Shown here piece after piece: positions 7,941 to 46,272 of a stretch of DNA of 64,000 bases (position 1 is its first letter; every line of letters begins with the position of its first letter). The notes under the pieces were generated by a model. It made no database searches, was not told the DNA's origin, and was given only the letters and a program-made list of their open reading frames with translations. A program made the position numbers and the translations under genes. The DNA is from Octopus vulgaris (taxonomy: Eukaryota), in assembly GCA_951406725.2 (NCBI GenBank), contig OX597831.1, positions 81,654,001-81,718,000 on the forward strand, given 5' to 3'.

Positions 7941-8842
7941 GGTTATGAGAGGTAATGGTGTATGTAAGACCCAACGGTGTCAGGTTATGCTGAGTAAGTG
8001 CTATGGACTGACTATAGTTAAGCTCCAGGGTCGGTGATTATGCGAATGAGGAGTCCAACGTAGGTCATATTTCAGTATGTGTATATATAAAAAAAATTTT
8101 TTCAGAATGAGATAGAAATCCAAGGCTGTGAAAGATTTCAGAACATTTATAAAGAGAAGGTCTTACAGCTGTTTGCGGGATATTTTATATATCCCTTCAT
8201 CGTACACGGTGTGAGAAGATGGTTAAACAATAGTTATTCTAGATAAGATATGAAATAGAGAGTGAAATGAAGGAATGAAAATAGATGCGAGATATGCAGG
8301 GATATTGCCTTTGTAGATCCATTATTTAGGCAGAATGGTATACATATAAAATTCCAATGCTTTGTGAGTAAAAGCCAATAGTTTTTAAAATTGGTCATTC
8401 CAAGTATAGAGTTTGTACACAGTACTATTGAATCAAGGGTTTTATTTATAGTGACCTTACAAATACATTCCCTACTTTTAGGTCACTTTAAATAAAACCC
8501 TTGATTCAATAGCACTGTTACAAATTCTATACTTGGAATGACTAATTTTAAATACTATTGGCTTTTACTCACAAGGTACAGGAAACTTATATGCATACCA
8601 TTCTGCCTAAATAATGGATCTATAAATGCAATATCCCTGCATATCTCACATCTATTTTCATTCCTCCACTTCACTCTCTATTTCGTATCTTATCTAAATT
8701 AACTATTTCTTAACCATCTGCTCATACCGTCTCTGATGAAGGGATATAATGAATATCCTGGAAACAGGTGTAAGACCTTCTCTTTATAAATGTTCTAAAA
8801 TCCTCACAGCCTTGGCTTTTTATCTCATTCTGAAAAAAATTT
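7941..8842 (-). mobile_element. Fold-back Penelope-like element, family A (long arms)
   Basis: Inverted arms ~8094-8457 and ~8480-8842, loop 8458-8479, unduplicated tail 7941-8093, (TA)n on both sides; homologous to 9885-10132 and 45787-46272. Confidence 0.8.
8729..8776 (+). ncRNA. Type I hammerhead ribozyme motif
   Basis: GUCU-CUGAUGA-A-GGGAUAU(loop)AUAUCCU-G-GAAA-CAGGUG-UA-AGAC: canonical core, stem I GUCU/AGAC, 7-bp stem II; stem III is the palindrome CAGCUG in sibling copies. Confidence 0.72.
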
Positions 8843-9884
8843 ATATATATATATATATGCCTGTCTGTCTGTCTATCTTTCTGTTTGTCTGTCTCTGTCT
8901 GTCTGTCTGTCTCTCTCTCTCTCTCTCTTTCTCCCTCTCTGTATATATGTATGTATGTGTGTGTGTGTGTTTGTGTGCGCGTCTGTACAAACAACATGAA
9001 AATGGGAAAATGTTGTCTATTCTTAATTGCTTGTTTCGCTCATTTCATTACAGGATCGGAGCCATAATCCTACACACACAGGAAAAAATGTACAGACTCG
9101 TCTCTCCTTCAACCTTCGGGTTTAAGGCTTAAGGGATTCTATACATTTCATTTTTCTTCACGTATCCCTTCTTGTAATGACACACATCTATCGTGGAATT
9201 AAACAGATACCAAGGTTTCCTAGTTTTCTCTTTTGACAGGAAATTATTCAGCAAATGGAATTCAATTGAACTTTCACTTGTTATGTCTGTCGCATCCAAC
9301 CAAAAACATCAATAGACAAACATGTGAAGAGGTATGCTTCTCGAGGACACAGCCTGGATTGTGGCCCATTATGTGGGTGTGTGTGTGTGTGTGTGTGTGT
9401 GTGTGTAATCACAAAAAACAAAGGAAATATATATCTTCAGTTATTTCTTTTAAATATCCAATTGTATGTCTCCTTATATATACCTATTAATGTGTATGAT
9501 GTAGATACGCTGAGGGAATGTATATTCTCACATTCAGCTTAGCACAGGAACCTCAAATGGAGATTCCCTGGAATAATCTGCAGATTTTCGCATCATCTTA
9601 AATCGATTGTGGTTGGAGAATGTGAATCAATTTGATTCGTTCCTTTTTGGAGAATTCCACCATTTTGGGAGGCTTTTATACAAATCTGATCTATGGCATT
9701 GAGTACAAATGAAAATCTACAGCCTTGATATATGTATGGACATACATATGTATATATTCATATATTTATGCATGCATATTTGTATAAATACATCAATATG
9801 CGTTTTTTTATGTATGTCCGTATATATGTATGCATGTGTGAATATCTATTTGTGTGAATGCATGTGTGAGTGTATATATATATA

Positions 9885-10132
9885 GCTGGGGTTATAAGAG
9901 ATAATGGTGTCATTGAGACCCAAAGGTGTCAGGTAATGTTGAATAAGTGCTATAGACAGACCATAGTTAAGTTCCAGATTCGGTAATATTGCGAATAAAG
10001 GGTTCAACGTTGGTTCTATGTCAGCATGTGTATATAAGAATTTTTTGCGTAATACGATAAAAAACCCAAGGCAGTATAGATATTAGAGCATTTACAGCCT
10101 TGGTTTTTTTTATCTTATTATGCAAAAAATTC
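9885..10132 (-). mobile_element. Fold-back Penelope-like element, family A (short arms, no ribozyme retained)
   Basis: Tail 9885-10037 is homologous to 7941-8093 and to the reverse complement of 46128-46272; arms ~10038-10076 and ~10093-10132; TA runs on both sides. Confidence 0.78.
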
Positions 10133-10324
10133 ATATATATATATATCTAATCCATATAATAACACAAAGAAACACTTTAACAAATCTTTAATGATTTGAT
10201 AAAATTGTTTCTGTAACAACTCTGCTTGCAACAACAGCTTACGCAATATTCAAAGTGAAAATTTTCAAACGTATGTGTGTGTGTATCGTATATGCATTAA
10301 TATATAAGTATGTGTATACATATG

Positions 10325-10520
10325 TATATCTATCTATCTATCTATCTATCTATCTATCTATCTATCTATCTATCTATCTATCTATCTGTCTGTCTGTCTG
10401 TCTGTCTGTCTGTCTGTCTGTCTGTCTGTCTGTCTGTCTATCTATCTATCTATCTATATATCTATCTATCTATCTATCTATCTATCTATCTATCTATCTA
10501 TCTATCTATCTATCTACCTA
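10325..10520. repeat. (TATC)n/(TGTC)n microsatellite
   Basis: Directly visible. Confidence 0.96.
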
Positions 10521-43143: not shown

Positions 43144-43521
43144 ATATTCTGTTGTGTCTGGAGAGAGAGTCATTGCCATTTGGTGCCTGATTACTTAACA
43201 CACGCACCGGTAAAATTTCCACTCGTTAACTAATTTATTTTTCTAAAATTTTCTTTGCGTCTTGAAACCTTTTCAATATTTGTTGACTCCGTTCGTTATT
43301 CAAGCTGCGTTCTCTCTTGAATAACGAACGTAGTCAACAAATATTAAAAAGGTTTCAAGACGCGACGAAAATTTTAGAAAAATAAATTAGTTAACGAGTG
43401 GAAATCTTACCGGTTAAGTAATCAGGCACCAAAAGAGAATGACTCTCCCCAGACACAACAGAATATGCTTCAACACACGAACTCATATAAAGAATCTTGC
43501 AAACCAAATCCCAAAACGAAA
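43144..43521 (+). mobile_element. Fold-back element, family C (copy 2)
   Basis: Arms 43144-43304 and 43316-43465, 11-nt loop, unduplicated tail ~43466-43521, TA/GTAT flanks. Confidence 0.72.
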
Positions 43522-44900
43522 TATACATATATGTATATACATACATACACACATACACACACATAATAATCATACTTATATCTATAAACAAATATATACA
43601 CTTATGTATGTTTATATGTATGTGTATATATATATATATATATATATATGTATGTATGTGTTGTGTGTGTTTGTATTTATTGATATATATACATAGAAGC
43701 ATGAATATATTTATATATAAAAAACTATGTGCGTGAGTGCGTTTGAATTATGGTGTGTGAGTGTGTGCGTGTGTTTGGGTGCGTGTGTGCGCGTGCGTCT
43801 GTGTGTAAAGACATGATTAAATAACAATGATGTACTTGTAGCCAATAAATACTAATATTTCGGTTCATCCTTTATTTCTAAACACTTCATTATTTCATCG
43901 TGTTGTTGACGGATATACATACATACGTGTGTGTGTGTGTGAGAGAGAGAGAGAGAGAGAGAGATAGAGAGGTGGGGGTCGATTCGTGTTTTTTTCTTTT
44001 TTTTTCTTATTGAAGGGAAGCGGAAACGGTATGGCGGATCTAAGTTGTAACGGCTGAATTGAACCAGAAGCGAAAAAACATTAAAGGAACTGAACAAAAA
44101 CTATTGAAAAATTACTGGAACAAATAAATAGGAAAATACGAGGACGTTTATACTGATCTCTCTTTTCCCTCTTTCTCTCTCACTCTTTCTCTTTCTCCAC
44201 GCACACGCACACACACACACACACACACACACACACACATATATATATATATATATATATGTATACCATATATACTTGAATTGGCAACAACAATGTACAA
44301 TACGAAGAAAGACACGGAACGTCGTTGTAAAAACATTCGCCCCAAACAGATAAACAGCCGGGCTTTGCTCGTTAAACGTTTCAAAACAAAACATTTCTTT
44401 CTCTTGTGTCAATATATTTTGTGATGATTCGCCTTAAATCGTTATTAATTTCACGCTGTGCTGGTCACAATCCAATTTATAAACTCTTGTGTGTATTTAC
44501 AGTATGACGGCAACAAACATCTTTGTTACTAGTTTTATATGTAAAAAACACAAATTATCAATTGATCAAAGTCAGTTTTGGGGCGATGATCACTCTCTGC
44601 CGATCAGCTCCAATAACATCGAAACATCCACAACTGTTACCTTACAGAAAATAAATCTCAAATATTTCTCTAAATCTCTGAAGAAGTTTTCAAAACTAAA
44701 TTTCTTTCTTTAGAAATTATCATCCCTTTACTTTCCAATGACAATTAGCAAATGGGTTTTACTCAGATTTCTCATATAAACAAGTAAATTTCAATTCCTT
44801 GCCATTCCCTGCACCACCTTTTAAATATAGTTGTCCAATTTTATGCCTTTGACGTCATTGGTTTACTTGAGTAATCTCCCTTACTACATTTTACTTTATG

Positions 44901-45122
44901 CAGTAATCCCTAGACTATCGCGACTATTACATTCCAAAACCACGCGCGATAGTTAAATATCCGCGAAGTACAAACAGTACGGTACTGTATATTTTTCATA
45001 TTATTTTTATAATTTGTATATATCTATTTTATTATGAATGCAAAACAACACCACGGAGGAATCGACAGAAGCTTAAATAATAAACCGCGATAGATGAACC
45101 GCGATATGGTGAGGGATTCCAG
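44901..45122. mobile_element. pogo/Tigger-type MITE
   Basis: TIRs CAGTAATCCCTAGACTATCGCG / CGCGATATGGTGAGGGATTCCAG; TA on the right flank, TG on the left. Confidence 0.68.
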
Positions 45123-45786
45123 TATTCGCTTTATATACTGAAAGTTTGTACTGAATTTCAATATGAAGCCATGTGACTGTACATTATATATAGAGTACAT
45201 ATATGTGCATATACATGCGCATATATATATACAGAGAGGGCGAGAGATAGCGAGATAAAGAGAGAGAGAGAAAGTGAGAGAGTGAGAGAGAAAGAGGTAT
45301 ATATACATATATACATATACATACATATATATATATATATATATACACACACACACACACATACACACACACACATACACACATATAATTTGATTGATTG
45401 AATGAATGTGGTTAATAAGCTTTCGCTTTTATGTTGTTCTGTGGAAGACGGTAGGAAATATAATGTTTGTATGACTTAATGGATTGGTCACTGTTTAGTT
45501 ACGTATTTAGGAGTTGGTTGTAATTTACTTATTGAATTTATTTACCGATACAGTTGTACATTGGGTAAATGTGTTTGAAAGTTGTGGTGTCTTTGTTTTG
45601 TTTTGTTTTTTGTTCCCAAACAACATTTATTTTAGTGTTGTTGACGCGCCGGATTGAATGGTACTGCACAGGTGTCGAAACCATAATGCTATCCGTGGGG
45701 CAGCTGAAGAATGAATGTATGTTGGATTGTTGTTATAGCTGTTTTTGTGTATATGGAATAGTATCATAACAGATCCTTTTGATATA

Positions 45787-46272
45787 TATATAAGAATTTT
45801 TTGCGTAATGAGATTAAAAAAATCAAGGCTGTGTAGATATTAGAACATTTATAGATAGAAGGTCTTACAGCTGTTTCTAGGATATTTATTAATAATATCC
45901 CTTCATCGGAGACGGTGTGAGAGGATAGTTAAGTCAGTTAGTTTAGATGTGATACAAAATATTACATCTAAACTAACTGACTTAACTATCCTCTCACACC
46001 GTCTCCGATGAAGGGATATTATTAATAAATATCCTAGAAACAGCTGTAAGACCTTCTATCTATAAATGTTCTAATATCTACACAGCCTTGATTTTTTTTA
46101 TCTCATTATGCAAAAAATTCTTATATACACACGCTGACATAGAACCAAAGATGAACCCCTTATTCGCAAAATTACCGAACCTGGAACTTAACTATGGTCT
46201 GTCTATATCACTTATTCAGCATTACCTGACACCTTTGGGTCTCAATGACAAAATTACCTCTTATAACCTCAA
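45787..46272 (+). mobile_element. Fold-back Penelope-like element, family A (near-perfect arms)
   Basis: Arms 45787-45950 and 45964-46127 almost identical, 13-nt loop, tail 46128-46272, TA-rich flanks. Confidence 0.85.
46001..46052 (+). ncRNA. Type I hammerhead ribozyme motif (CCGAUGA variant); mirror copy at 45862-45913 (-)
   Basis: GUCU-CCGAUGA-A-GGGAUAUU(AUUAAUA)AAUAUCCU-A-GAAA-CAGCUG-UA-AGAC. Confidence 0.72.

Follow-up and report, generated by a model that had tools for sequence, protein, structure and literature searches.

Palindromic insertions of a Hydra-clade Penelope-like retrotransposon in Octopus vulgaris: two fixed end sites and a probable origin by twin priming

Introduction

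In a 64,000-nt stretch of the Octopus vulgaris genome (GenBank assembly GCA_951406725.2, contig OX597831.1, positions 81,654,001 to 81,718,000; the whole stretch is referred to below as the window), three palindromic repeats carry a common tail on one arm and share a common end on the other, which raises the question of how such structures come to be inserted. The original prediction was that each palindrome is generated anew at insertion, by 5′ truncation followed by fold-back or template-switch synthesis ending at a TATA run. Judging from their sequence, the three are almost certainly short, 5′-truncated insertions of a Penelope-like element (PLE) of the Hydra clade, here called family A, and the palindromes probably arise by twin priming, with two separate complementary DNAs (cDNAs) started at two fixed sites of the RNA. 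The element class, the clade and the end architecture are already known; what is added here is a long-tail variant, together with counts from the genome that speak for twin priming rather than fold-back.

The three palindromes

All three copies lie where they had been predicted, as self-inverted matches (8082-8853 at 87.5%, 10031-10139 at 81% and 45787-46127 at 96.8%) and the mutual alignment of the tails confirm. Positions within the element, written x, are counted along the sense strand from the last A of a TATATA run (x = 0), which we call site 1; site 2 is the outer end of the tail.

7925-7940, (TA)n adjoining the outer end of the copy 1 tail
7940-8081, minus strand, copy 1 tail, 142 nt, the leader segment between putative start sites 1 and 2
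8082-8457, minus strand, copy 1 tail-bearing arm: end of the 3′ untranslated region (UTR) and a decayed hammerhead-like motif; mosaic, with a c-type distal part
8452-8457, copy 1 head-to-head junction, a 6-nt microhomology (TGACCT) by sequence comparison with longer copies
8452-8847, plus strand, copy 1 tail-less arm, b-type, ending at site 1 within (TA)n (8842-8858)
8728-8777, plus strand, copy 1 hammerhead-like motif with its core at 8733 and a predicted cut following 8772; no Rfam match
9885-10030, minus strand, copy 2 tail, subfamily a
10031-10097, minus strand, copy 2 tail-bearing arm, starting at x = -66, within the centre hot spot
10094-10139, plus strand, copy 2 tail-less arm, 46 nt, with a 4-nt junction overlap, ending at site 1
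45787-45961, minus strand, copy 3 tail-less arm, 175 nt, with a hammerhead-like motif, ending at site 1 in (TA)n
45960-46127, plus strand, copy 3 tail-bearing arm of 168 nt, its motif having the core at 46005 and a predicted cut following 46048
46128-46272, plus strand, copy 3 tail, 145 nt, with TA-rich target beyond

The tails, expected to have some 145-150 nt in common, are 142, about 146 and 145 nt long and align at 77-88%. Arm lengths first put at about 365, 40 and 164 bp are close to the mark: the tail-less arms measure about 395, 46 and 175 nt, and the part shared by the two arms about 373, 46 and 168 nt.

Identity of the family

For a 25-nt motif of the tail the genome holds 1,080 exact matches (563 + 517) against none for its reversed control, showing that the palindrome family is not a product of chance; a 371-nt query returned 3,826 first-look candidates in the 2.8-Gb genome. 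Longer copies link the palindromes to coding sequence. In locus L019 the arm continues through a low-complexity 3′ UTR to the C-terminus of a GIY-YIG protein, and the longer copy L006 reaches pieces of a reverse transcriptase (RT). At 20 RT-bearing loci the order is RT, endonuclease (EN), UTR, hammerhead-like motif and site 1 wherever these are intact. The near full-length L085 has tail, start of the open reading frame (ORF), RT (YRDD), EN, UTR, hammerhead-like motif and site 1, in that order. Its tail sequence continues into the ORF, and the conserved ORF start MDKQFLGISLKD follows about 45 nt beyond the tail end. The tail can thus be understood as a second occurrence, at the 3′ end, of the 5′ leader, forming a pseudo-LTR (pLTR): the 3′ end repeats the element's 5′ start and the tail is found on one arm only. 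We also considered the tail as the N-terminus of the ORF, and rejected this: the frame is open in copy 3, yet the conserved start lies past the tail.

Four loci (L085, L077, L079 and L080) align along a full-length homologue (P0002) with a single ORF for RT and GIY-YIG endonuclease. Pfam matches are weak and below cut-off (E = 0.012 for GIY-YIG, in the homologues, and 0.045 for RVT_1), and every family A copy examined has a broken ORF. A genome-wide RVT_1 search gave 150 matches. The closest protein match of the family RT, at 79%, is from Octopus bimaculoides; the homologue P0001 from that species carries the name 'GATA zinc finger domain-containing protein 14-like'.

Clade placement rests on protein motifs. 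A CxCx5C linker precedes GIY-YIG (CNCRPGTTC in L079, CNCHDKTTC in a young sister family described below); the EN lacks CCHH, with no cysteine pair between its IY and YIG halves, and has CKLC and CNH (CxxC, CxH). The DKT motif is present (SDKTGN in L085), and the RWK position reads RMRxKA with a stop at W in family A and RWR in the sister family. The Neptune clade, for which a CX2-5CxxC linker and a CCHH motif are expected, was ruled out, neither being found. The '<3 kb' given for Hydra-clade elements is exceeded (the L085 arm is 3.9 kb and the sister unit 5.2 kb), a size described as a tendency and not a definition in the relevant part of PMC8557442. L085 also has an asparagine-rich insert within the linker that joins RT to EN, as likewise reported for rotifer PLEs.

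Two end sites, usually one on each arm

Family A was sampled through the tail motif: the first 92 of 100 position-listed matches, minus two copies that had been collected before, gave 90 copies. This anchor picks tail-bearing copies and leaves single tail-less arms out of the count. A script found an adjacent inverted arm in 47 of the 90. Of these arms 39 end at site 1, counted within 16 nt as the (TA)n target blurs the exact end, and none ends at the tail end; an insertion usually has one end of each kind. The fixed arm end that had been noticed, AAAAAATT(C/T)TATATA, is indeed present in all three copies of the window, and is the prevailing end rather than the invariable one. Tail ends are spread across about 25 nt, with tails of 142-156 nt, and (TA)4 directly follows 63 of the 90, against a background of 8.7%.

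The two arms bear no constant relation to each other. Ten of the 39 insertions have a tail arm that begins inside the tail, leaving arms without a single shared base, and among the 29 overlapping pairs the site-1 arm is the longer by more than 15 nt in six and the tail arm in five. Because so many pairs share nothing and either arm may be longer (the supposedly copied one is longer in 6 of the 29 and shorter in 5), fold-back synthesis in the simple form proposed, with its end at the TATA run, is not supported, and synthesis likely starts at the fixed point. Later deletion is an unlikely source of the non-overlapping arms, as these copies are no more diverged than the others: the medians for non-overlap and overlap are 0.019 and 0.039 in subfamily a (n = 7 versus 48, p = 0.07 towards younger) and 0.048 and 0.042 in subfamily bc (n = 7 versus 20, p = 0.94).

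In three copies (L105, L131 and L143) the inverted arm reaches into the tail and ends there at about +31 to +48. These ends may mark a minor third start site, which would lie near the published tail length of 30-40 bp.

A twin-priming model

In L1, twin priming yields head-to-head pieces that do not overlap and whose outer end lies at an internal site of the RNA. Taken together with the two internal starts and both-strand cutting of PAc (Poseidon, Anolis; both are compared below), this leads to a model in which a pair of cDNAs is started at two fixed points. Both strands of a (TA)n target would be nicked by the endonuclease of the element, and reverse transcription would begin twice, on opposite target strands, each time at its own fixed site of one and the same sense RNA. 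The start at site 1 would give the tail-less arm and that at site 2, 142-156 nt further 3′, the arm with the tail. Each cDNA would halt independently or run off the 5′ end of the RNA, and the two would be joined head-to-head, often at a short microhomology. A site-2 cDNA that halted before site 1 would leave arms without shared sequence, whilst one that passed it would create a palindrome. Overlapping arms would presumably require strand displacement or a second RNA of the same locus.

Relatedness of the arms

That the palindromes are made at insertion and are not inherited terminal inverted repeats (TIRs) was correctly anticipated, as was 5′ truncation of a retroelement. Site-1 arms are 22-370 nt long in the sample, and that of L085 extends to 3.9 kb; in a tree built from 22 insertions arm label is unclustered (19 label changes against a shuffled mean of 15.0), so that tail-less arms do not group together. 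Partner arms are closer to each other than to the median other copy in 24 of 27 cases, and fall in the top 5% in eight, although they can differ by up to 18%.

A single RNA per insertion is favoured. Subfamily, assigned with a two-cluster model (a four-cluster model collapsed), is concordant in 88 of 92 confident arm pairs, a figure that subfamilies of different age would likewise produce; by eye, the four discordant pairs look intermediate or misaligned. Alleles of the young sister family, both of them common, are concordant in 16 of 17 pairs, the exception being L274.

The idea that arm divergence could date each insertion holds for pooled copies, in which private changes amount to 4.05% in tails and 3.36% in each arm, and breaks down for single ones, where tail and arm private changes show no correlation (rho = -0.32, p = 0.12, n = 26). 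Between the arms of copy 1, 10 of 80 diagnostic columns disagree, following a b/c pattern, a subfamily difference which makes part of their apparent age a difference between templates. Copy 3 has no unshared private change in 138 arm columns against five in 115 tail columns, and its arms were likely homogenised; for a 24-nt variant in its tail, no exact sister was found.

Where the arms meet

The predicted fold-back point was variable. Arm lengths do vary, but the centre is not freely variable: 16 of the 39 site-1 arms are 59-84 nt long, and the family A stop rate peaks at -60 to -80 (16 of 59; 1.3% per nt against 0.2-0.3% on either side). A further pile-up at -340 is the limit of the ruler, values at or below it being lower bounds. 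The predicted ribozyme cut lies at -74 to -79, which is also about 28 nt past a TATA-like loop. The hammerhead-like parse, in part circular, gives a core, three stems (89-100% paired) and a palindromic loop 3 in 98 of 344 arms; changes are one-sided only, pair 10.1-11.1 is non-canonical, and Rfam at its gathering threshold returned no match in the window.

As a general stop the predicted cut was rejected: by eye, it accounts for about 8 of 100 listed matches in subfamily a, 1 of 100 in subfamily b and none of 100 in the young family. Nor did the 100 listed family A matches, by eye, show a sharp pile-up near -220 that would mark a transcription start. The ribozyme cut, a transcription start and microhomology may each be considered candidates for the family A centre stop.

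A young sister family

A second Hydra-type family (loci L253-L332, for example G000:C18:62338500-62348499 and G000:C1:68812000-68821999) has about 50% protein identity to family A and a DNA divergence of 1-2%. It has 2,720 exact tail-motif matches, a 718-aa open frame and a 5.2-kb tandem unit. Its end sites are the same two, about 75 nt apart, which makes the tail about 75 nt long; 16 of 17 short pairs combine a site-1 end with a tail end. Non-overlapping arms occur in 4 of 100 listed matches (by eye), and arms of ORF length end at either site.

Stops are sharper here than in family A. A single base, 29 nt after TATAAAT, is the stop of 14 out of 58 arms; a further 13 stop no more than 6 nt short of it, and only three have a true stop within the 34 nt that follow. 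Judged by eye, 28 of 100 listed matches stop at the same base. This base is likely the RNA 5′ end. Five of the 14 arms have G in place of the native T before the stop base. The partner arm could supply four such G residues, but not that of L286 nor those of both arms at C1:48434432, and the extra G suggests a copied cap. We take the TATA-to-start spacing and the cap-G signature to be those of ordinary transcription starts.

A bolder reading can be put forward tentatively, as a possibility somewhat short of an even chance: the inverted pLTRs of PLEs might be products of programmed twin priming on one sense RNA, in which both cDNAs run off a defined RNA 5′ end close upstream. In the young family this end would be a capped start of transcription, with the extra G copied from the cap, and in family A it would be the hammerhead cut.

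Evidence against the model and alternatives to it

Several observations weigh against twin priming from two fixed sites of one RNA, or against the run-off just described. Eight of the 47 adjacent arms end elsewhere (at -223, -91, -52, -46, -37, -21, +31 and +48). No adjacent inverted arm was found by script in 43 of the 90 tail copies; by eye, an arm that is tiny, was missed or has been displaced is present in about nine of these, and the remainder imply that many insertions use one cDNA only. The long young insertions L253 and L261 have the same end type on both sides. The arms of copy 1 straddle a starred branch of the tree (95/88) and L274 is discordant in its alleles, so one RNA is not universal. 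The family A hot spot overlaps self-complementary, microsatellite-like sequence and, in subfamily b, with its near-absence of stops at the predicted cut, most stops fall at a native ATTTATAAAT palindrome 10 nt downstream of it.

The copy 1 and L274 discordances would be expected if a dimeric particle carried two RNAs, each primed at one site. The PAc protein is a predicted dimer (PMC11167929), and overlapping arms would then form without strand displacement. Against this stand the concordance of the young alleles, though two RNAs of one locus would look concordant too, and the correlated 5′ ends of partner arms, which also speak for a stop shared by the two cDNAs: in 18 of the 29 overlapping pairs the two ends lie within 15 nt of each other (permutation mean 6.9 pairs; none of 20,000 permutations attained 18). 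We regard dual priming as unlikely in general; a switch between two templates may apply to some copies.

Those near-equal arms are equally what self-priming would yield, if a tail-end cDNA folded, copied itself and jumped to the target at the TATATA run, with later central deletions and arm flips providing the asymmetry. Centres that prefer self-complementary sites and arms from a common source fit such fold-back too, and it has been proposed for PLE head-to-head palindromes before (as presented in PMC3846280). It does not, however, account for the arms without a shared base, which are no older than the rest and occur in the young family as well. In L085 and L077 the tail-less arm is kilobases long and holds the RT ORF, whereas the other arm consists of nothing more than part of the tail, an arrangement that no flip can reach. 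The 30-nt unique spacer of copy 1 proves, by comparison with longer copies, to be part of the tail-less arm and continuous with it, and the ORF-length arms of the young family end at either site. Fold-back is accordingly a quite improbable source of these structures. That the palindromes are miniature inverted-repeat transposable elements (MITEs) or foldback DNA transposons with inherited TIRs, or an assembly artefact, is scarcely credible: inverted ends flanked by TA speak for it, but the arms belong to an element with RT and EN, of which they form the 3′ end, a linkage to the ORF that refutes it, their lengths are continuous, arm label is unclustered and arms differ by as much as 18%.

Comparison with known systems

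Twin priming from two fixed sites can be set beside published PLEs. In the sections of PMC8557442 that deal with Hydra-clade elements, these share with family A a C-terminal GIY-YIG, DKT, the CxCx5C linker, the absence of CCHH, the CxxC and CxH motifs, a hammerhead-like motif (putative in family A), a (TA)n target and the inverted 5′-truncated copy, with a tail at one end only. A truncated inverted copy plus a tail of 30-40 bp on one side is the pattern published for PLEs. At 142-156 nt, the family A tail has some four times the published length, that of the sister family being about 75 nt, and the family A unit is about 4 kb against <3 kb. An O. bimaculoides Hydra family, Hydra-1_Obim, is already listed there as 2507 bp with 'no pLTR' (Craig et al. 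2021, PMC8557442), and is compared here by that listed description only.

The PAc protein cuts and extends both strands of an AT-rich target (Frangieh et al. 2024, PMC11167929), and in the experiments relevant here PAc has two internal RT start sites bounding a tail, as in our model. Its sites lie 111-118 nt inside the ORF, whereas both are at least 45 nt before the conserved ORF start in family A; the parts of that account compared here do not explain the inverted arm, and the study found no RNA ends at the ribozyme cut (PMC11167929).

L1 twin or dual priming, as outlined in PMC2837659, likewise involves a second internal priming event on the RNA from the other strand, yielding an inverted 5′ segment joined head-to-head. 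Family A differs in its fixed internal site, in having no poly(A), in arms that often overlap into a palindrome and in that the structure is the norm, at about half of copies. The inverted pLTRs of Adineta and of Drosophila Penelope (as described in parts of PMC3846280 and PMC2377424) are similar in their head-to-head repeats of variable size with a tail on one arm. Those of Adineta were read as self-priming on an antisense template (PMC3846280), a reading that the non-overlapping arms here argue against. Our literature search found no work on PLE twin priming or on a cap-derived G, though older papers or Repbase entries may describe such ends.

Other repeats in the window

Two 3.5-kb direct duplicates (33618-37096 and 40103-43665, 92%) contain a broken LINE-type RT and end in a palindromic repeat (36366-36822 and 42988-43680). 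A TA-flanked palindrome of 540 nt (50351-50892) resembles what we take to be a folded mariner-type fragment. Further hammerhead-like cores at 4615 (minus strand, within 4544-4710) and 20378 (plus strand) possibly belong to another PLE family; repeats bearing them recur at 6674-7079, 18767-19163, 20004-20297 and 25244-25535. Six short repeats resembling short interspersed nuclear elements lie at 7441-7588, 13354-13516, 23906-24024, 30233-30365, 46432-46661 and 48462-48683, one of them adjoining copy 3.

Implications

The origin of tandem and inverted PLE ends is named as an open question in the pertinent part of PMC8557442. With thousands of copies, and a tail long enough to catch truncations, the octopus genome separates fold-back from two-primer models without experiment. 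For annotation, short palindromes of this kind are PLE fragments and not MITEs, and the divergence of their arms is unsuitable for dating single copies. The young family, with its 718-aa open frame and near-identical copies, offers a ready in vitro system. If the tentative run-off reading is true, the palindrome centres would record, in the genome, PLE templates cleaved by their ribozyme, and run-off would replace the idea of antisense self-priming.

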